Below the pieces are notes generated by a model that was not told where the DNA came from, searched no databases, and worked only from the letters and a program-made list of their open reading frames with translations. Shown in pieces: positions 1-7,865 of a DNA stretch of 40,823 nt. Both the position numbers and the translations under genes were made by a program. This DNA is from Clostridiales bacterium (GTDB taxonomy: Bacteria > Bacillota > Clostridia > Tissierellales > Dethiosulfatibacteraceae). The DNA lies in the NCBI GenBank assembly GCA_003539375.1, contig DPPH01000052.1, positions 10,743-51,565 on the forward strand. Reading direction: 5' to 3'. How positions within the stretch are numbered: position 1 is the stretch's first letter; each line of letters opens with the position of its first letter.

Positions 1-2
1 GT

Positions 3-191
3 AGACAAATCTTAGGAGCTGTTATAGGAGGATTGCTAATGGGATACGGGGCTAGAATAGCTTTTGGATGTAATATTGGAGCACTATATAGTGGTATTTC
101 CACCCTGTCTTTATCCGGCTGGATTTATGGAATATTTATGTTTTTAGGTGCAGTAATAGGTAGCAAAATGCTTATGAAATTTTTTATATAA
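3..191 (+). CDS. 3' end of a YeeE/YedE-family sulfur (thiosulfate) / selenium-compound transporter gene; the 5' part lies outside the window
   Basis: Frame 3 is open from the window edge to TAA at 189-191. It reads RQILGAVIGGLLMGYGARIAFGCNIGALYSGISTLSLSGWIYGIFMFLGAVIGSKMLMKFFI, a Gly-rich TM segment with the FGCNxG cysteine loop typical of YeeE/YedE (Sulf_transp) proteins. It is absent from the ORF track because it has no start codon in the window. Confidence 0.55.
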   Translation, partial: RQILGAVIGGLLMGYGARIAFGCNIGALYSGISTLSLSGWIYGIFMFLGAVIGSKMLMKFFI

Positions 192-193
192 CT

Positions 194-1750
194 TTAATTT
201 GTAACTTTGTAGATTTTTACATTCCAAACATCCTCATACATATACATGCTTAACCTCATAGCGTAAGGGCTGTCAAATTGATGAATCAATTGACAGTTTT
301 CTTTTATGTATGATTCCATATCTTCGTAGTAGTAGTACAGATTACCATAAATGAAATTCCATACAGGTCTGCTGTTGTATATAAAATCCATTTCTTCTGG
401 ATATATTATATACTCTATGTTATTTTTTTGTATATATTCAGAGAAAGACATATCATTTTCTTTCAAAAAATGCAGATTCCTATAATCATATAAAGTATTA
501 TTGTGGAAATAATACTCAGTATTTAAGTTAGCTAAAACTGTTGATTCATCATCTATGTAATCACCAATATTTTCTAAATAATTTTTGTAATCATTATTTA
601 AATAAGGAATTATACTGAATATTGATATTATAAGTAAAACCAATGATAAAAAAAGTATCAGGATATTTTTATATTTAAAACTTCTTATGTTTTCAGCAAA
701 TAGAATCCAGAAGAATGGAAAAAGAAAAATAATACTGGTTTGATTATATCTTCCAATAACTATGTAAGTAATATTAATAGCCCCAATAATAAAAATTAAC
801 ATTCCTAGAAATCTAAATTTATCCGTGTTTTTCTTAATTAAAAACCTAACAAAACTGATTATATAAATAATTGAGAATAAAAGCAGTTGTAATTTAATAT
901 TAGGGATATAATAGGTTCCACTTACTTGATAGAAAAGCTTAAGATAAAAGTTTTTGATTTCACCTATCCTGTCTGTTGGCTTCGCAAAAACATTAAATTG
1001 ATCTCCAAATTCCTTATAATTTTGGAAAAAATTTGGATCAAAGTACAAATTTAAACCAACAAAAATAGCAGCAAAACTACCGGTAACTATAACATATACT
1101 AGCATAGATTTAAGGGTAGATTTTTTTCCAAATACTATATCGTAGATATACATAGAACCTAACACAGCAGCTATGAATAGACTATTAGGGTGAATTCCTA
1201 TATTTAAACCAGTTATTATACCAAGGACAATAGATTTCTTTAATGAATCTTCATATTTAATATAATAGAAAAAAACGAAAATCATAAAAAAAAGAATTAC
1301 AGCTTCTTGTCTTGCAAAATGTGAAGTATATATGAAGTGTATATCAAAAGCTAAAAGTACTGTAACTAAAAAAGACAGTTTACTAGAATTGAAAATTCTT
1401 AAGGATATTTTATAAATAAAATATAAAGAACCTATACTAAACAAAAGGGATATCAACCTAAAAGCAAATAAATTATATCCGAAAACCATCATAAATAATC
1501 CCTGAATATAATGGAAAAATATTTTTATACTGTGGGGAAATCTTGGAAGTAGGTCAAAAAAAGATTCGGTAACAATAGGAGTACCTTTTTCTATATACAA
1601 TCTTGACAAACCACTTAACCAAGATTCATCAGAATGCATAAAAGGATACTTTGTTAAAAATATAATGTTAAATATAAAATACAATGTTAAAAATAATGCA
1701 ATATATTTTTGGTCGAATTTATTTTTTATTTCTATTAAATATCTTTTCAT
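194..1750 (-). CDS. Polytopic membrane protein, GT-C fold glycosyltransferase (family 39 / PMT_2 / ArnT-like)
   Basis: 518 aa with many hydrophobic helices. The first extracytoplasmic loop has an acidic motif (FMHSDESWLSG), as in the DE/DxD loop of GT-C enzymes. A non-hydrophobic C-terminal domain of roughly 130 aa follows. Family call is by eye only. Confidence 0.5.
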   Translation of the reverse strand: MKRYLIEIKNKFDQKYIALFLTLYFIFNIIFLTKYPFMHSDESWLSGLSRLYIEKGTPIVTESFFDLLPRFPHSIKIFFHYIQGLFMMVFGYNLFAFRLISLLFSIGSLYFIYKISLRIFNSSKLSFLVTVLLAFDIHFIYTSHFARQEAVILFFMIFVFFYYIKYEDSLKKSIVLGIITGLNIGIHPNSLFIAAVLGSMYIYDIVFGKKSTLKSMLVYVIVTGSFAAIFVGLNLYFDPNFFQNYKEFGDQFNVFAKPTDRIGEIKNFYLKLFYQVSGTYYIPNIKLQLLLFSIIYIISFVRFLIKKNTDKFRFLGMLIFIIGAINITYIVIGRYNQTSIIFLFPFFWILFAENIRSFKYKNILILFLSLVLLIISIFSIIPYLNNDYKNYLENIGDYIDDESTVLANLNTEYYFHNNTLYDYRNLHFLKENDMSFSEYIQKNNIEYIIYPEEMDFIYNSRPVWNFIYGNLYYYYEDMESYIKENCQLIHQFDSPYAMRLSMYMYEDVWNVKIYKVTN

Positions 1751-1933
1751 AAAATACCATCTTTCATTTAAATATCAATAAATATTATACATAAAAATCA
1801 ACAAAAAATAAAGGATATAACCTAATCAAATACAGTATAATAAAAGACGGTATCAAAATGAAAACCTTTTATCATATAATATATTGTGTATTATTTAACA
1901 ATTAATTTCAAAATGAAAGGAATGGAGGTAGAG

Positions 1934-2851
1934 ATGCGAAAAATATCTTTAATATTGATTGCTTCCTTACTTCTAGCGTCAGTAGCTGGTCTAAGTGGTT
2001 GTGCTACATATGATTTCGCTGAAGAAGGGACAGTTATAATTTCACCAAGTGAAGCTTTAGAATTAGTAAAGGAAGAAAATGTAGTACTTATTGATGCTCG
2101 AAACGAAGCTGAATATGAAGCATATCATGTAGAAGGTGCTGTAAATATACCGAGAAGTGCAATAGTTACAGATAAGCCGTATCCAAATATGTTGGCACCA
2201 AAAGTTCGTATTGAAAATGTTATGGGCAATAGTGGTATATCTAATGATACATTAGTAGTTGTTTATGATAATAACAAAAATATGGATGCAGCTAGATTAT
2301 GGTGGACGCTTTTAGTATATGGACATGAAAATGCAAAAATCATAAACGGTGGAGTAAATGCTCTAGCTAAAGATGGAGTTGAATTTGTTCAGGAAGTTCC
2401 TGAAGTAGAAAAAGCTCAATTTACAGCTGAAGAACTTAATACAGATTACATTGCAACAAAAGAAGAAATTGAAGGTTATCTAAACGAACCTCAAGAAGAC
2501 ATTCTACTTTTAGATACAAGAACCCAAGAAGAATATGCAGCGGGAACTATACCAGGGTCAGTACTATATAATTTTGAAAACAATAATTATTCAACTGGAG
2601 CTTTTAAATCTCCAAAAGACATTCAAAATGATTATATTGATATTGGGATAACTCCAGATCAAACAATTGTAATGTTTTGTAAAACTTCTATAAGAGGAGC
2701 CCAATCATTTGCAGCCTTATATAATGCTGGATACAGAAATTTAAAGCTATATGATGGAGCATGGGTAGAATGGAGCGATAGTGATGAAGTGCCAGCTGAA
2801 GAACCAGCTGATACACCAGCACCGCCACCATCATCTTCAGATGGAAGTTGA
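1934..2851 (+). CDS. Exported two-domain rhodanese (thiosulfate/3-mercaptopyruvate sulfurtransferase-like) lipoprotein
   Basis: ORF 1886-2851 trimmed to ATG 1934, which is preceded by GGAGG at 1924-1928. Signal peptide MRKISLILIASLLLASVAGLSGC has a lipobox. The N-terminal rhodanese domain is inactive (VVVYDNNKNMDAARLWW) and the C-terminal domain is catalytic (loop FCKTSIRG). Pro/Ser-rich C-terminal tail: EEPADTPAPPPSSSDGS. Confidence 0.85.
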   Translation: MRKISLILIASLLLASVAGLSGCATYDFAEEGTVIISPSEALELVKEENVVLIDARNEAEYEAYHVEGAVNIPRSAIVTDKPYPNMLAPKVRIENVMGNSGISNDTLVVVYDNNKNMDAARLWWTLLVYGHENAKIINGGVNALAKDGVEFVQEVPEVEKAQFTAEELNTDYIATKEEIEGYLNEPQEDILLLDTRTQEEYAAGTIPGSVLYNFENNNYSTGAFKSPKDIQNDYIDIGITPDQTIVMFCKTSIRGAQSFAALYNAGYRNLKLYDGAWVEWSDSDEVPAEEPADTPAPPPSSSDGS

Positions 2852-2902
2852 TAAATAAATTAAATTTAGGGGTTAAAAATTAAATCAAATAGGAGGATTT
2901 AA

Positions 2903-4726
2903 ATGAACACACTTTTAAAAAGATTTTTAGTATTACTTACTGTAATAGCATTAGTATTTAGTATGGCAGCCTGCTCTCCAAGTGAAGAGCCAGCTGAAGA
3001 ACCAGAACAGGAAGAACCGGCTGAAGAGCCAGAAGAGGAAGAACCAGCTGAAGAGCCAGCTGAAATTGATCCGGCAACAGTTGAAGCTGCTGTAAATAGT
3101 TATTTTTCTGAAATGCCAGAAGATATTTATAAAATTGGACAGGCAGATTTCATAGAAAAAGTAGCTAACGGCGAAGACATGTTTGTTCTCGATATAAGAC
3201 AGGCAGATGCTTATGCTGAGGGACATATAATAGGAGCATATAATGCACCATGGGGCCCGGCAATAGCTGAAAACTTGGATAAATTACCAACGGACAAAAC
3301 TGTTTATGTTTACTGTTATTCAGGACAGACTGCAGGTCAAGCTGTAGCTACATTAAACATGGCTGGTATCGATGCAAAATCAGTAAACTTAGGTTTTAAC
3401 TATGGTATATCAAAAGTAGAAGGATACGAAGATTATATTGAAACTTATGAATATGAATTTGGTCCTGCGATTACAGATATAGATCCATCAATCCAAATGG
3501 CATTGACTGAATATTATGAAGGATTAGCAGATGTAGCAGGAACAACTTATGCAAATTACAAAATAAGTGAAGCAGACCTTAACACACTAATAGAAGAAGG
3601 CGACGACAGCATATATATATTATCTATTAGAGGTGAGGATGCATACAACGAAGGACATATAACTGGAGCTGAGTTACTACCATTTGGTAAAGGAATGCAA
3701 GAAGGATTCGGAGATTTACCAAAAGATAAAACCATCGTAGTATACTGCTACACAGGACAAACAGCAGGTCAAACCGTAGCAGGTCTTAGACTTTTAGGAT
3801 ACGATGCAGTTTCTTTAAATGGTGGTATTGGAATGCCTTCAAATTCACCTTTAGGATGGGTAAATCAAGGTTATCCACTTCATAACCAAGAGGGAACTGA
3901 AAATGTAGTGGAAGATGCAGCAATGGCTTATTTTGCTAACTTATCAGATGACATTAATAAAATTGGACAGGCTGAATTTTTAGAAAAAGTTGAAGCTGGA
4001 GAAGATATGTTTGTTCTTGATATAAGACAGGCAGATGCTTATGCTGAAGGTCACGTAAAAGGCGCTTACAACGCACCTTGGGGCCCTGCAATTGCAGAAA
4101 ATTTAGCAAAAATACCTCAGTTACCATCAGGGACTCCGGTTTATGTATACTGTTATTCAGGACAAACAGCAGGTCAAGCTGTAGCTACATTGAGAGTTGC
4201 AGGTATAGATGCTATATCAGTAAACTTAGGATTTAACTATGGAATAGCAAAAGTTGATGGATATGAAGCATATTTAGAGACAGAAGCTAATGAATTTGGC
4301 GAGGACGTAGCAGAAGTTGATCCAACCATTCAAGCAGCTATTACTGATTACTATGAAGGATTAGCAGATGTGGCTGGAACTACTTATGCAAACTATAAAA
4401 TTAGTGAAGCAGATCTTAATAGCCTAATCGAAGCTGAAGATGATAGCATATATGTGCTGTCAATAAGAAGTCAAAGTGCTTATGATGAAGGACATATACC
4501 TACTGCTGAACTTTTACCATTTGGTAAAGGAATGCAGGAAGGGTTCAGTGACTTACCAAAGGATAAGACTATTGTAGTTTACTGCTATACTGGTCAAACG
4601 GCTGGTCAAACAGTTGGAATATTGAGACTTTTAGGATACGATGCAGTTTCTCTTAACGGTGGAGTTGGAATGGAATCCAATGCACCATTAGGATGGGCAA
4701 ACCAAGGATTTGAATTAGTACAATAA
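2903..4726 (+). CDS. Exported lipoprotein with four rhodanese domains (A-B-A'-B'), each with an intact catalytic Cys loop
   Basis: 607 aa. Signal peptide ends in a lipobox-like MAAC, followed by an acidic EEPAE linker. Four rhodanese domains carry loops VYCYSGQTAGQ / VYCYTGQTAGQ / VYCYSGQTAGQ / VYCYTGQTAGQ (C-x-x-G-x-T spacing of sulfurtransferase-type rhodaneses such as GlpE). RBS AGGAGG lies upstream of ATG 2903. Confidence 0.85.
   Translation: MNTLLKRFLVLLTVIALVFSMAACSPSEEPAEEPEQEEPAEEPEEEEPAEEPAEIDPATVEAAVNSYFSEMPEDIYKIGQADFIEKVANGEDMFVLDIRQADAYAEGHIIGAYNAPWGPAIAENLDKLPTDKTVYVYCYSGQTAGQAVATLNMAGIDAKSVNLGFNYGISKVEGYEDYIETYEYEFGPAITDIDPSIQMALTEYYEGLADVAGTTYANYKISEADLNTLIEEGDDSIYILSIRGEDAYNEGHITGAELLPFGKGMQEGFGDLPKDKTIVVYCYTGQTAGQTVAGLRLLGYDAVSLNGGIGMPSNSPLGWVNQGYPLHNQEGTENVVEDAAMAYFANLSDDINKIGQAEFLEKVEAGEDMFVLDIRQADAYAEGHVKGAYNAPWGPAIAENLAKIPQLPSGTPVYVYCYSGQTAGQAVATLRVAGIDAISVNLGFNYGIAKVDGYEAYLETEANEFGEDVAEVDPTIQAAITDYYEGLADVAGTTYANYKISEADLNSLIEAEDDSIYVLSIRSQSAYDEGHIPTAELLPFGKGMQEGFSDLPKDKTIVVYCYTGQTAGQTVGILRLLGYDAVSLNGGVGMESNAPLGWANQGFELVQ
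2984..3064 (+). repeat. Imperfect in-frame tandem repeat encoding (E)EEPAE units (acidic Pro-rich linker)
   Basis: gaagagccagctgaa / gaaccagaacaggaa / gaaccggctgaagag / ccagaagaggaagaa / ccagctgaagagccagctgaa. Translation: EEPAEEPEQEEPAEEPEEEEPAEEPAE. Confidence 0.75.
3074..4723 (+). repeat. Intragenic direct tandem duplication: unit 1 = 3074-3901, unit 2 = 3902-4723, each encoding a two-rhodanese module
   Basis: aa 58-333 and 334-607 align end to end. Long identical stretches include GEDMFVLDIRQADAYAEGH, GAYNAPWGPAIAENL, YVYCYSGQTAGQAVATL, YYEGLADVAGTTYANYKISEADLN, ELLPFGKGMQEGF and DLPKDKTIVVYCYTGQTAGQTV. The DNA matches too: atgtttgtt at 3179 versus 4007, an in-frame offset of 828 nt. Confidence 0.9.
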
Positions 4727-4744
4727 TTTGAAAAAATAATGGAA

Positions 4745-4777
4745 GGTGGTCTTCAAAGGACCGCCTTTTTTCTTTTT
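4745..4777 (+). terminator. Rho-independent terminator after the rhodanese genes
   Basis: GGTGGTCT (4745-4752) pairs with GGACCGCC (4758-4765), including two G-U pairs, around a 5-nt loop. TTTTTTCTTTTT follows. Confidence 0.7.
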
Positions 4778-4784
4778 GAATATG

Positions 4785-4793
4785 TGGTATAAT
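4785..4793 (+). promoter_or_regulatory. Extended -10 promoter element (TGgTATAAT) for the selU gene
   Basis: TGG at 4785-4787 followed by TATAAT at 4788-4793, about 20 nt upstream of ATG 4815. No good -35 element seen. Confidence 0.4.
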
Positions 4794-4814
4794 AATCTAT
4801 TATAGGAGGGAAAA

Positions 4815-5852
4815 ATGCTTATAACTAGACCGTATGAAAAATTAAAAGACAACAGCATATTTATTGATGTAAGAAGTCCTGGAGAGCATAGTTCTGAAAG
4901 GATAATAGATTCTATAAACATCCCATTATTTAATGATGAAGAAAGAAGCCTCATAGGTACTGCATATAAACAGCAAAGTGTTACTGAAGCTAGAAGACTT
5001 GGAGTTGAAATTGTATCCAAAAAACTACCTAATTTTTTTGGAAAAATTAATGAATTAATTGATTCAGAAGATAAGCAGCTTGCGGCATACTGTGCGAGAG
5101 GTGGGTATAGAAGTACTTTTTTTGCTTCTGCATTCTCATCCGTTGGAATGAATATAATAAAAGTAGATGGTGGTTACAAAAAATACAGAAAATATATATA
5201 TGAAAATCTTCCTAAACTTAATGACAAAATGAAATATATAGTGATTCACGGTAATACAGGAGTAGGTAAAACTGAGATACTTAATGAATTAAAAAAAGAA
5301 GGTGAGTATATACTTGATTTTGAAAAGGCAGCAAACCACAGAGGGTCACTACTAGGAGGGATAGGACTAGGAGAACCTAGCAGTCAAAAAAACTTTGAAT
5401 CTAAAATATTTAATTACATGGATAAAGCAAAAGATGATTATATTTTTGTGGAAGCAGAAAGTAGAAGAGTTGGAAGTGCAATGATACCAAAATATATCCA
5501 TGATAAGATGAAATCGGGTATACACATATATGTAGATGCAAGTACTGAGAAAAGAATAGAGATACTAAGGAATGATTATATTCAAAACAAGTTTTGGAAA
5601 GAAGAATCCATAAAAAACATAGATAGATTGAAGAAATATATCTCAAAAGAAAGGATAAAAGAATTAAAAAATAAAGTTGAAAATAACGATTTTGACTATG
5701 TAGCTAAAGAATTAATGATAAATTACTACGATTCAATGTATCAAAATAAGTCTAAAGAATATGACTATGATTTGGAGTTGAAAAACGATAATTCTTATAA
5801 AACTGCTATAGAAATAATTAACTGGAAAAAAGAAAATATTCTTGGCAAATAG
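4815..5852 (+). CDS. selU: tRNA 2-selenouridine synthase (rhodanese domain + P-loop domain)
   Basis: 345 aa. The N-terminal rhodanese region resembles E. coli SelU/MnmH/YbbB: IDVRSPGEH, NIPLFNDEERSLIGTAYKQQ, catalytic AYCARGGYRS, VDGGYKKYR. It is followed by Walker A HGNTGVGKTE. RBS AGGAGGG lies before the ATG. Confidence 0.85.
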   Translation: MLITRPYEKLKDNSIFIDVRSPGEHSSERIIDSINIPLFNDEERSLIGTAYKQQSVTEARRLGVEIVSKKLPNFFGKINELIDSEDKQLAAYCARGGYRSTFFASAFSSVGMNIIKVDGGYKKYRKYIYENLPKLNDKMKYIVIHGNTGVGKTEILNELKKEGEYILDFEKAANHRGSLLGGIGLGEPSSQKNFESKIFNYMDKAKDDYIFVEAESRRVGSAMIPKYIHDKMKSGIHIYVDASTEKRIEILRNDYIQNKFWKEESIKNIDRLKKYISKERIKELKNKVENNDFDYVAKELMINYYDSMYQNKSKEYDYDLELKNDNSYKTAIEIINWKKENILGK

Positions 5853-5897: not shown

Positions 5898-7127
5898 ATG
5901 GATAATTTAATAACAAAACTTAAAATTTTAGCTGAAGGTGCAAAATATGATGTATCATGCTCATCTAGCGGTGTAGAGAGAAAAAATAAGGGTAAAATTG
6001 GCAGTTCGAGGTCTTTTGGAATATGTCATACATGGTCAAGTGATGGTAGATGTATATCATTACTTAAGGTGTTGATGTCTAACAACTGCATTTATGATTG
6101 TACCTACTGTATTAATAGGGTTAGCAATGATATAAAGAGAGCTTCTTTTTCTCCGGAAGAAATAGCAAAACTAACTTTTGAATTTTATAGGAGAAATTAT
6201 ATTGAAGGTCTTTTTTTGTCTTCGGCAGTAGAAAAAAATCCTGACTACACATCTGAAAATATTTGTAAAGCTCTGGAAATACTTAGGTTTAAATACGGAT
6301 TTTCTGGATATATTCATGTGAAAGGAATTCCTAATACTTCTAAAGATTTAATGAATAAACTAGGATTTTTAGCTGATAGACTAAGTATAAATATAGAATT
6401 ACCAAGTGAAAAGAGTTTAAAACTTTTGGCTCCTCAGAAAAAAACAAAAACTCTACTTCTGCCGATGAGAGATTTAAATAACAAAATAATGGAAAATAGA
6501 GATGAAAGAAGCAGATATAAAAAGGCTAAAAAATTTTTACCTGCAGGACAAACGACCCAGATGATTGTAGGAGCATCTCAGGATAGTGATTATCAACTTT
6601 TAAAGACCAGTCAAATACTATATGATAAGTTTAGTTTAAAAAGAGTTTTTTATTCAGCATATATACCGGTGGTTGAAAACTCACTGCTACCGGCTGTCAA
6701 CACAAAACCTCCTTTAAAAAGAGAGCACAGATTATATCAGGCTGATTGGCTCTTAAGGTTTTATAACTTTAGAGCGGATGAATTACTATCTGAAGAAATT
6801 AGAAATTTCGACTTGGAGTTCGATCCCAAAATCAATTGGGCTTTCAATAACATTGGCCAGTTTCCAAAAGAAATAAACAAGGTATCCTATGACGAGCTTT
6901 TAAGAATACCAGGGATAGGTCCAAAATCAGCAGGAAGAATAGTAAAAGAGAGAAAATTTTTCCCTTTAAACTATGATAATCTAAAAAGAATTGGAGTGGT
7001 ATTGAAAAGAGCAAAATATTTTATAACTTGCAGTGGAAAATACTACGGTGGTATAGATATTAGTCCCGAGTTAATTAAGTACAAATTAGGAGAAATGGAA
7101 AACAGCCGACAGATATCATTTTTTTAA
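5898..7127 (+). CDS. Putative DNA modification/repair radical SAM protein (TIGR03916-like) with C-terminal helix-hairpin-helix
   Basis: 409 aa. CxxxCxxC cluster motif NNCIYDCTYCIN. C-terminal HhH LLRIPGIGPKSAGRIV. Always-paired partner gene lies immediately downstream. Confidence 0.85.
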   Translation: MDNLITKLKILAEGAKYDVSCSSSGVERKNKGKIGSSRSFGICHTWSSDGRCISLLKVLMSNNCIYDCTYCINRVSNDIKRASFSPEEIAKLTFEFYRRNYIEGLFLSSAVEKNPDYTSENICKALEILRFKYGFSGYIHVKGIPNTSKDLMNKLGFLADRLSINIELPSEKSLKLLAPQKKTKTLLLPMRDLNNKIMENRDERSRYKKAKKFLPAGQTTQMIVGASQDSDYQLLKTSQILYDKFSLKRVFYSAYIPVVENSLLPAVNTKPPLKREHRLYQADWLLRFYNFRADELLSEEIRNFDLEFDPKINWAFNNIGQFPKEINKVSYDELLRIPGIGPKSAGRIVKERKFFPLNYDNLKRIGVVLKRAKYFITCSGKYYGGIDISPELIKYKLGEMENSRQISFF

Positions 7128-7136
7128 GGAGGTCAA

Positions 7137-7865
7137 ATGGATTATTTATATGATGGTACTTACACAGGATTTATGACTTCTTTATACCTTCATTTTAAAT
7201 ACAGAGAAAGTACAGGTATTTATTCAAAAAAATTCTATCAAGAATCCTTGACATCAAATTATAAAATAGTGAAAACTAATGAAGATTTATCTCAAAAAAT
7301 GGAAGGATTAATAAGGGATAAAATTTCTAGTAGGGCCTTAAAGTTAATTTATTATAGTTTTCTATCAAACGAAGAAAAAAAAGAAATGTTTATTATAAAA
7401 TTTGTAAAATTAGGTTTAATAAAAGGAAATATTACTGGTCTATATTCTCATGAAGATACTTTTCCTCTTCAAAAAATATATGATAAAGTATCTAAAGAAA
7501 AACATAGATTTTTAGGGATAATTAGATTTAAAGATATTAATGGAGTGTTATTTTCAAAATATTCACCAGATCATGATATTACAGAACTTATTATGCCCCA
7601 TTTTTCCGATAGGTATAAAAATGAGAACTTAATAATTTTTGATGAAAAGAGATTAAAAGCTGGTACATATAATAAAAATGAATGGTATCTTTCAAAAATT
7701 GATAAAAGAATTTATGATAAATTCAAAGATGAAGAAGAAATTTATGAAAAAATGTGGAGAGAATATTTTAATTCTATAAGCATAGATGATAGGAAAAACT
7801 TAAAGGCTCAATTTCAATTTGTACCTTATAGGTATAGAAAAAATATTACGGAATTTAATAAATAA
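7137..7865 (+). CDS. DUF4130 / TIGR03915-like 'probable DNA metabolism protein', obligate partner of the radical SAM protein; no fused UDG domain
   Basis: 242 aa beginning MDYLYDGTYTGFMTSLY, the characteristic YDGsfeG-type N-terminus of this family. The start lies 9 nt after the stop of the radical SAM gene, with RBS AAGGAGG. Confidence 0.75.
   Translation: MDYLYDGTYTGFMTSLYLHFKYRESTGIYSKKFYQESLTSNYKIVKTNEDLSQKMEGLIRDKISSRALKLIYYSFLSNEEKKEMFIIKFVKLGLIKGNITGLYSHEDTFPLQKIYDKVSKEKHRFLGIIRFKDINGVLFSKYSPDHDITELIMPHFSDRYKNENLIIFDEKRLKAGTYNKNEWYLSKIDKRIYDKFKDEEEIYEKMWREYFNSISIDDRKNLKAQFQFVPYRYRKNITEFNK

Follow-up and report, generated by a model that had tools for sequence, protein, structure and literature searches.

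The production of sulfide from thiosulfate or sulfur by fermentative Clostridia, Dethiosulfatibacter and Fusibacter among them, contributes to the souring and corrosion of oil, gas, and wastewater systems. How these bacteria capture and reduce such compounds in the absence of classical respiratory enzymes is not well defined. Among the described systems closest to the one reported here are the YeeE (TsuA)/YeeD (TsuB) thiosulfate uptake systems of S. thermophila and E. coli (PDB ID: 6LEO and 8J4C), the extracytoplasmic rhodaneses exemplified by E. coli PspE, Wolinella Sud, and Geobacter ExtH, and the three-component transmembrane glycosylation systems (reviewed in PMC8035078). In this study, we analyzed a gene cluster related to all three in a Clostridiales bacterium of the Dethiosulfatibacteraceae (GenBank assembly GCA_003539375.1; 2.1 Mb in 286 contigs, 77% complete, 30.6% GC). 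The stretch of DNA under analysis, hereafter the window, comprises 40,823 nucleotides (contig DPPH01000052.1, positions 10,743 to 51,565; C146:10743-51565 in our numbering). Its first five genes, whose positions in an initial annotation were confirmed by open reading frame (ORF) listing and family scans, encode the end of a split YeeE channel, a membrane glycosyltransferase of the GT-C fold, two rhodanese lipoproteins (Rhod2 and Rhod4), and the tRNA 2-selenouridine synthase MnmH/SelU (Table 1). The cluster, which begins left of the window, is apparently an undescribed one of anaerobic Clostridia, and literature searches retrieved no paper describing a combination of surface rhodaneses, YeeE/TusA, and GT-C glycosylation. 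We consider it probable, with moderate confidence, that the cluster serves thiosulfate/polysulfide capture and import through the surface rhodaneses and YeeE/TusA, and that it is furnished with a dedicated surface glycosylation module.

The conservation of the cluster was assessed by a one-genome-per-species scan with Rhod4, which yielded 80 loci, followed by tblastn with the proteins of the window, and the partners were counted over the 49 species-level loci having at least 9 kb on both flanks. TusA, the GT2 glycosyltransferase, and the ATP-grasp ligase were each present in 46 of these loci, GT-C and a DegT-type transaminase in 44, and Rhod2 in 42. Other partners were a thioredoxin reductase (TrxR)-thioredoxin fusion (32), an SsuA-like ATP-binding cassette (ABC) importer (approximately 29), and SelU (2), SelD and SclA lying outside that search. 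YeeE of any kind was found in at least 39 of the 49, a lower bound because the gene often lies beyond the locus edge. Examination of the neighborhoods of orthologous rhodanese lipoproteins, as proposed in the initial annotation, thus revealed that the linkage with YeeE/TusA is kept in nearly all loci. The same partners were present at the loci of Vallitalea, Fusibacter, Helicovermis, and a metagenome-assembled genome, and in the Christensenellales-type loci they were arranged on one strand, except for LysR, in the order YeeE1-TusA-YeeE2-TrxR-Rhod2-Rhod4-GT-C-DegT-GT2-ATP-grasp. Being conserved in dozens of species, the gene grouping is far beyond chance.

The co-inheritance of the individual genes was then followed in 401 genomes spread evenly over the class Clostridia, with thresholds of E ≤ 1e-60 for the rhodanese lipoprotein, E ≤ 1e-10 for GT-C, E ≤ 1e-86 for the ATP-grasp orthogroup, and E ≤ 1e-55 for the YeeE subfamily. 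The rhodanese lipoprotein family occurred in 14 genomes, and the GT-C family in 16, comprising those 14 together with two incomplete genomes from a family that otherwise possesses both; at its threshold, GT-C gave no match in any further genome of the 401. This co-occurrence (Fisher p = 5e-24, not corrected for phylogeny) extended over approximately eight families and 10 genera. Of the 14 genomes with both genes, 12 had GT-C directly beside the rhodanese gene; in the other two, which are fragmented assemblies, it lay farther off or on another contig. This GT-C family thus occurs only beside rhodanese lipoproteins. Because the two share the same genomes and are adjacent, GT-C, which had initially been read as a mere separator of yeeE and the rhodanese genes, turned out to be no interruption: of all partners of the rhodanese lipoproteins, it is the most faithful and the one most tightly co-inherited with them. 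The ATP-grasp orthogroup (37–46% identity) was cleanly set apart from distant, widespread paralogues (≤30% identity). Among the 16 GT-C genomes, 15 possess this orthogroup, and in the sixteenth the contig stops before the gene. GT2 and the ATP-grasp ligase are members of the same module as GT-C and the rhodanese lipoproteins.

The YeeE subfamily was distributed more broadly, occurring in 28 of the 401 genomes, of which 15 were among the 16 GT-C genomes and 13 were others. In the core-only loci of the latter (12 of 13 fetched), the arrangement was TusA-LysR-YeeE1-(TusA)-YeeE2, and 8 of the 12 continued with a TrxR-like or CoA-persulfide-reductase-like (CoAPR-like) gene. These 12 loci contained no GT-C and no rhodanese lipoprotein of the Rhod2/Rhod4 family (apart from two weak Rhod2-like matches), and a search of them for SelD, SclA, and seleno_YedE homologues found none. 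The cluster is therefore composed of a widespread importer/reductase core, to which a surface module consisting of the rhodanese lipoproteins, GT-C, and the sugar pathway has been added as a unit. Related genes were also observed elsewhere in this genome: C259:3129-8432 encodes a fused 501-aa YeeE, a CoADR-rhodanese (CoAPR-like, 70% identical to that of L012), an ABC permease, and an SsuA-like lipoprotein, and C92:18898-21402 encodes a metallo-beta-lactamase-rhodanese fusion (persulfide-dioxygenase-like) with two YeeE/YedE half-genes.

Both rhodaneses have N-termini with a Lys/Arg n-region, a hydrophobic core, and a lipobox (LSGC in Rhod2 and MAAC in Rhod4). A rule-based sequence test thus bore out the initial prediction that the signal peptides of both end in a lipobox Cys, and it found the lipobox in 63 of 66 Rhod2 and 67 of 80 Rhod4 orthologues, those missing it being truncated loci or near-lipoboxes. 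Rhod2 displayed a tandem rhodanese fold of the SseA/TST-like type with a Pro/Ser-rich C-terminal tail; its domain 1 appeared inactive, as YD (Asp) replaces the catalytic Cys, while domain 2 has the loop CKTSIRG. The best NCBIfam match of Rhod2 was 3-mercaptopyruvate sulfurtransferase (91.6 bits, below the cut-off of 250). In Rhod4, a duplicated two-domain unit, all four domains carry a CY[ST]GQTAGQ loop with one Cys each, so that five of the six domains in the two lipoproteins, as the initial annotation had counted, possess a catalytic Cys. The lipobox residue C24 and the catalytic C138, C282, C417, and C561 of Rhod4 were invariant among 12 diverse orthologues. Based on these motifs and on the PF00581 matches (Table 1), Rhod2 and Rhod4 are assigned to the rhodanese fold with an active-site Cys loop, and sulfurtransferase activity is predicted for both.

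More than 500 homologues of Rhod4 were found, mostly of 580–610 aa but including six-domain forms of approximately 865 aa, and their database names are generic ("rhodanese-like domain-containing protein"). The number of rhodanese domains varies among loci (2, 4, or 6), Rhod2 being optional, and the four-domain architecture is common to several orders. A search of PDB with Rhod4 gave generic rhodanese domains and the four-domain cytoplasmic protein 1YT8, and nothing closer. The two halves of Rhod4 share 76% DNA identity, which, with the four-domain layout being common to several orders, gives no support to a recent internal duplication. Across the family, N- and C-terminal halves group by lineage rather than by position, with 49–94% identity within a protein versus approximately 59% between proteins, which suggests concerted evolution or repeated, independent duplication.

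The lipobox of Rhod4 is followed by an acidic, EEPAE-rich tether of approximately 35 residues, and the tethers of the orthologues have a mean length of 39 aa and a composition of 23% Ser+Thr, 24% Asp+Glu, and 8% Pro. A motif [ST]-M-[DE]-[LV]-[TS], located approximately 8–12 residues past the lipobox Cys (e.g., in L024, L019, and L036), is kept in the Fusibacter, Vallitalea, Acidaminobacter, and Oceanirhabdus lineages and is absent from Rhod4 of the window; this motif may serve in recognition or be a target of modification. Only two loci with full flanks, L083 (Negativibacillus massiliensis) and L092, were devoid of any cluster partner, and their Rhod4 homologues possess a signal peptide but no lipobox, which fits the view that lipid anchoring and GT-C go together.

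Extension of the contig leftwards, another step advised by the initial annotation, disclosed the rest of yeeE and a TusA-like partner, in addition to LysR, GT2, and ATP-grasp genes. Since an N run at L001 10445-10742 hides the middle of the second YeeE half, that half was read from an unmasked relative (L007:6726-7283, 80% identical). The first half aligned to residues 8–129 of S. thermophila YeeE (6LEO), including the equivalents of C22 and C91 (RFCF and GGCASG), and the second half, represented by the L007 orthologue, aligned to residues 235–326, including the equivalent of C293 (GGCNIG loop there, FGCNIG here). All three channel cysteines are kept across the two colinear halves, and the channel is accordingly classified, on these alignments, as a putative split TsuA-like Sulf_transp channel with a TusA-type partner. 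The two halves scored 80 and 70 bits against the TsuA model NF052577 (cut-off 400) and 68 and 38 bits against NF041049 (cut-off 645), all below cut-offs that are hard to apply to this protein because they were set for whole proteins and it is split in two. Against the seleno_YedE model TIGR04112 they reached 31.6 bits (cut-off 200).

The glycosylation module was examined at the structural level. As a sequence search of PDB with GT-C gave no match, a fold search was needed, and an AlphaFold (AF2) model was built from 38 orthologues with high scores (mean pLDDT 94.9, pTM 0.93). With this model, the best 26 Foldseek matches in PDB were all GT-C enzymes, at TM scores of 0.5–0.6 for the best, and included ALG12, STT3/PglB, ALG9, ArnT, Pmt4, DPY19, and AftB. 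The residues H39, S40, D41, and E42 (HSDE) in the first outer loop were invariant in the 38 orthologues, in agreement with the acidic catalytic motif of the GT-C superfamily. Because the matches include both protein-modifying and lipid/glycan-modifying enzymes, the fold leaves the choice of acceptor to other evidence, and the exclusive pairing of GT-C with the rhodaneses favors the lipoproteins as the glycosylation target, without proving it. GT2 scored 120 bits against ArnC and 111 bits against PgfS, both under the equivalog cut-offs, and above the cut-off for PF00535. In the fuller loci, the DegT-type transaminase was WecE-like (dTDP-4-amino-4,6-dideoxyhexose; 479 bits, cut-off 375), and an epimerase-family gene encoded an RmlB-like dehydratase (416 bits, cut-off 365). 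The PDB search with the ATP-grasp ligase yielded just generic L-amino-acid-ligase, PurD-like, and Ddl matches, which are too general for its substrate to be named.

Table 1. Features of the rhodanese cluster and of related loci. Positions are those of the window unless another sequence is named; L001 coordinates are used for the genes left of the window.
Feature	Position	Strand	Support or remark
ATP-grasp ligase with L-amino-acid-ligase C-domain	L001 6237-7478	-	
GT2 glycosyltransferase, closest to ArnC and PgfS	L001 7475-8227	-	
TusA-like protein, 73 aa	L001 8323-8544	+	PF01206; CPVP (CPxP) motif
LysR regulator, divergent from split YeeE	L001 8541-9437	-	
YeeE first half, 223 aa	L001 9569-10240	+	PF04143, E 1.5e-30
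YeeE second half, N-masked in part	L001 10209-10933	+	its end is the first ORF of the window
YeeE C-terminus, 62 residues, second half of split channel	3-191	+	PF04143, E 3e-18; AFGCNIG loop
GT-C fold membrane glycosyltransferase (PMT_2/PMT)	194-1750	-	PMT_2, 38.6 bits (cut-off 26.1)
Divergent intergenic region, GT-C/rhodanese operon	1751-1933	.	TATAAT 1875-1880; Shine-Dalgarno GGAGG 1924-1928
Rhod2, two-domain rhodanese lipoprotein	1934-2851	+	PF00581, 2 stretches, E 7e-36
Rhod4, four-domain rhodanese lipoprotein	2903-4726	+	PF00581, 4 stretches, E 4e-56
Intrinsic terminator ending the rhodanese operon	4741-4778	+	hairpin 4741-4769 and T-run; 13-bp stem, 5 GC pairs
Extended -10 element TGgTATAAT, for selU	4785-4793	+	read directly
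MnmH/SelU, tRNA 2-selenouridine synthase	4815-5852	+	NF008750, 343 bits (cut-off 241); TIGR03167, 313 bits (cut-off 220)
Canonical selenium locus	contig C256, L005 10024-14863		selD, LysR_Sec_metab, SclA-like desulfurase, seleno_YedE, YedF/TusA-like 68 aa, 78-aa small ORF

The rhodanese operon is separated from selU by a strong terminator and a promoter of the latter's own (Table 1), as had been noted initially. SelU itself was recognized directly by its rhodanese loop CARGGYRS and P-loop GNTGVGKT. Metatranscriptome contigs from four runs covered yeeE and Rhod2-Rhod4, so that these genes are expressed in situ; GT-C was covered weakly and patchily. The depth of such contigs is a poor measure of expression, and they are read here as showing expression and the likely operon limits. 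The RNA contigs broke between Rhod4 and selU in three of the four runs, while a single contig ran from Rhod2 through selU in the other; the transcriptional independence of selU is therefore likely rather than proven. In all four runs, the contigs started at 1923–1927, leaving the intergenic stretch uncovered. This start is within the Shine-Dalgarno region of Rhod2, approximately 36 nt downstream of the start expected from the TATAAT at 1875–1880, and the selU contigs, starting at 4836 and 4844 in two runs, showed a similar offset from their promoter. The offset is probably due to assembler trimming of the contig ends.

The GC content of the rhodanese genes (0.35 and 0.38) was higher than that of the long ORFs of the genome (0.326), in keeping with the initial annotation, where they were judged by eye to be more GC-rich than their neighbors, but the foreign origin thereby hinted at did not hold. 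The excess resides in codon positions 1 and 2, reflecting proteins rich in Ala, Gly, Glu, Asp, and Pro, and not in the third position, where the GC content (GC3; 0.137 and 0.189) does not exceed the genome mean (0.222), which leaves no sign of foreign origin and rules out such an origin as deduced from GC. In the surroundings, downstream of selU at window 5898-7865, a radical SAM/HhH protein (TIGR03916, 622 bits) is paired with a DUF4130 protein (TIGR03915), and the pair is also kept in the close relative L007. At the far left, L001 1-3461 carries a Na+-translocating methylmalonyl-CoA decarboxylase-type operon (carboxyltransferase, small subunit, biotin carrier, and membrane beta subunit), after which come dprA and a GalT/HIT-like gene in the same dprA/GalT order as in L007.

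DNA nearly identical to this cluster was detected in oil-field, gas-well, subsurface, and wastewater metagenomes. Several Fusibacter species carry the cluster, and in the genome of one of them, F. ferrireducens, no molybdopterin-oxidoreductase match was found, so that any sulfur reduction in this organism cannot use Phs/Psr-type enzymes. F. ferrireducens reportedly reduces sulfur. This census of molybdopterin enzymes, in which the present genome gave four unclassified hits, is suggestive only. The nearest named carrier, at 69% identity, was Dethiosulfatibacter aminovorans, which is a known thiosulfate reducer according to a citing paper (PMC7046593, citing Takii 2007) and was enriched in thiosulfate-reducing cultures from shale-gas water (PMC7046593).

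From the gene content, conservation, co-inheritance, folds, motifs, and in situ expression observed above, we infer which substrates are used, which way the sulfur flows, and what is glycosylated, as follows. In the core, the YeeE/TsuA-type split channel would import thiosulfate or sulfane sulfur, TusA would accept the imported sulfur inside the cell, and a TrxR-like or CoAPR-like enzyme would reduce it to sulfide as an electron sink and/or for sulfur assimilation; in this genome, the reductase step may be provided from elsewhere by the fused YeeE and CoAPR on C259. The surface rhodaneses would take sulfane sulfur from thiosulfate, polysulfide, or elemental sulfur (S0) as Cys-persulfides and deliver it to the mouth of the YeeE channel. 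In parallel, GT2 would load a sugar onto polyprenyl phosphate, this sugar in the fuller clusters presumably being a dTDP-4-amino-4,6-dideoxyhexose derived via the RmlB-like and WecE-like enzymes and probably N-acylated by the ATP-grasp ligase. GT-C would then transfer the sugar outside the membrane, most likely onto the acidic Ser/Thr/Pro-rich tethers of the rhodanese lipoproteins, or onto the nearby envelope. The extracellular capture/relay idea of the initial annotation is thereby retained in its sulfur-capture and import part, while its selenium branch is given up for the reasons discussed below.

Several points weigh against this scheme of sulfur capture, import, and surface glycosylation. 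The YeeE halves scored higher on the YedE/FdhT "selenium" model NF033796 (105 and 107 bits, the cut-off of 350 being unmet) than on the TsuA models, and the best match of LysR was a selenium-associated LysR model (181 bits, under the cut-off of 250). The cluster itself showed no gene for a GtrA-type flippase, no genome-wide flippase search having been made, and the acceptor of GT-C may be teichoic acids or another envelope component instead of the rhodaneses. The copy of the cluster in this genome, which is just 77% complete and has yeeE partly masked, is without the reductase, WecE-like transaminase, and ABC importer of the fuller versions. In addition, some carriers (Vallitalea) are, to our knowledge, not described as sulfur or thiosulfate reducers.

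A bolder version of the scheme combines the lipoproteins and the private GT-C/ATP-grasp pathway into one extracytoplasmic machine, in which sulfur harvest would depend on an N-acylated 4-amino-6-deoxyhexose attached to the tethers or to a lipid or polymer close by. One role for such a glycan might be to place the enzymes across the wall; another might be to bring sulfane sulfur to the mouth of YeeE as a carrier in its own right. We regard this version as unlikely; if true, it would constitute a new type of surface sulfur-acquisition apparatus and would explain the molybdenum-enzyme-independent reduction of thiosulfate and S0 by fermentative sulfidogens of oil fields and sediments.

The surface rhodaneses might alternatively protect thiols and the redox state of the envelope, by detoxifying reactive sulfur, cyanide, or oxidants or by aiding extracytoplasmic thiol-disulfide chemistry, with the glycan shielding the wall. 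E. coli PspE can help such chemistry, and the rhodanese domains are PspE/GlpE-like, with scores just under the cut-offs (NF007627, 92 bits; NF001195, 87 bits). CstR-type persulfide-stress operons of Firmicutes likewise combine rhodaneses, CoAPR, and YeeE-like transporters, and the habitat of sulfidic oil-field and subsurface water also speaks for protection. Nevertheless, import is the better match for the obligatory association with an importer-type channel and cytoplasmic reductases, and the rhodanese family is enriched in known thiosulfate/sulfur reducers; we thus judge a protective role to be quite unlikely.

The roles of sulfur and glycan might also be reversed, such that the product is an unusual lipid-linked N-acyl-4-amino-6-deoxyhexose glycoconjugate for which YeeE, TusA, and the rhodaneses supply the sulfur (as a thio or sulfonate acyl group), or on which they act outside the cell as a sulfur carrier. 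The single phyletic pattern shared by the rhodanese lipoprotein, GT-C, and ATP-grasp would agree with this, as would the SsuA-family ABC importer located between ATP-grasp and GT-C in 29 of the 49 loci. The cluster, however, contained no sulfur-inserting enzyme (radical SAM, PP-loop, or YcaO), the version in the window is without the ABC importer and the transaminase, and the YeeE core is widespread without glycosylation genes and is paired with reductases. A sulfur-bearing glycan as the end product is therefore considered improbable.

In a selenium relay, which develops the possible selenium branch of the initial annotation, selenium would be bound by the surface rhodaneses as perselenide or selenotrisulfide and passed via a YedE-like channel to SelD and hence to SelU. 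The best scores of the YeeE halves and LysR on selenium-associated NCBIfam models, although under cut-off, speak for such a relay, as does the proximity of selU here and in the nearest relatives. A search of the genome for selD, as advised initially, revealed a selenocysteine-type selD (with in-frame TGA) together with tRNA-Sec, and among 30 cluster-bearing genomes selD scored above the cut-off in 25. The rhodanese-like lipoprotein ExtH of Geobacter has moreover been tied to selenite, in the account given by a citing paper (Jahan et al. 2019, cited in PMC13510729).

Against these points, the genome already possesses a canonical selenium locus on C256 (Table 1), with LysR_Sec_metab at 333 bits (cut-off 250) and seleno_YedE (TIGR04112) at 521 bits (cut-off 200). 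SelU draws selenophosphate from SelD, not selenium from a rhodanese, and its gene adjoins Rhod4 in only 5 of 68 loci with sufficient downstream sequence, all of them from the nearest relatives (Dethiosulfatibacter/Tissierellales lineage); in the window it lies past the terminator behind its own promoter. The remaining 5 of the 30 carriers, including single-contig or chromosome-level and apparently complete assemblies, showed no selD above the cut-off, and the lone YeeE core is accompanied by TrxR-like or CoAPR-like genes, selenium genes being found at none of the 12 core-only loci. SelU is thus likely a separately transcribed, lineage-local neighbor outside the conserved cluster, and the carriers without selD, the rare SelU adjacency, and the separate canonical locus argue against the cluster being a selenium system. 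A selenium relay as the core function was accordingly rejected, the selenium-free core-only loci adding to this evidence, and the relay in any form is highly improbable; the tempting link to selenium metabolism is hereby corrected as unsupported.

In comparison with the described systems, the channel resembles YeeE/YeeD in its Sulf_transp fold, three channel Cys residues, and adjacent TusA-like CPxP protein, and differs from it in being split in two genes with a divergent LysR and in its TsuA scores below the cut-offs. Furthermore, the YeeE/YeeD systems are without extracytoplasmic rhodanese lipoproteins or a glycosylation module, whereas the present cluster has both. As in PspE, Sud, and ExtH, the last of which is also a lipoprotein, the rhodanese catalytic Cys is predicted to lie outside the cytoplasmic membrane. 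PspE and Sud, however, are single-domain, soluble periplasmic proteins of Gram-negative bacteria, while the proteins here are 2-, 4-, and 6-domain lipoproteins of Gram-positive-type Clostridia. The score against the PspE model was 92 (cut-off 102), and those against the ExtH model NF040901 were 58 bits for Rhod2 and 15 bits for Rhod4 (cut-off 200). None of PspE, Sud, and ExtH has a dedicated GT-C.

The pairing of GT2 with a PMT_2-type GT-C bearing an Asp-Glu motif is shared with the three-component systems made up of a GtrB/CsbB-type GT2, a flippase, and a GT-C, including ArnC/ArnT, PgfS/PgfM of S. mutans, and actinobacterial Ppm1/Pmt, as is an amino sugar produced by a transaminase of the WecE/ArnB class. 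Unlike those systems, the set here showed no flippase in the cluster; it does include an ATP-grasp ligase, to which many loci add an SsuA-like ABC importer. The CoADR-rhodanese fusion found beside YeeE in the fuller clusters and on another contig of this genome recalls the CstR/cst-like operons and the NADH-dependent persulfide reductases (CoAPR/Npsr). The CstR/cst-like systems differ in being cytoplasmic stress responses with cytoplasmic rhodaneses, and they have no surface lipoproteins or glycosylation module.

A further comparison concerns RdlA of Halanaerobium, a cytoplasmic protein that is not known to have the gene context of this cluster. Likened by description only, it too is a rhodanese-like protein with a candidate role in thiosulfate reduction, being proposed, according to a citing paper, for the non-respiratory thiosulfate reduction of oil-field fermenters (Ravot et al. 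2005, cited in PMC7046593). Compared with all these precedents, YeeE/TusA uptake, extracytoplasmic rhodanese, and three-component glycosylation are of known kinds, and the main addition is that GT-C, GT2, and ATP-grasp are integral, co-inherited members of one cluster. The restriction of this GT-C family to the neighborhoods of extracytoplasmic rhodaneses points to a sulfur-specific glycosylation of lipoproteins or envelope, and the cluster as a whole offers a testable candidate route leading from surface rhodaneses through YeeE/TusA import to a flavoprotein reductase.

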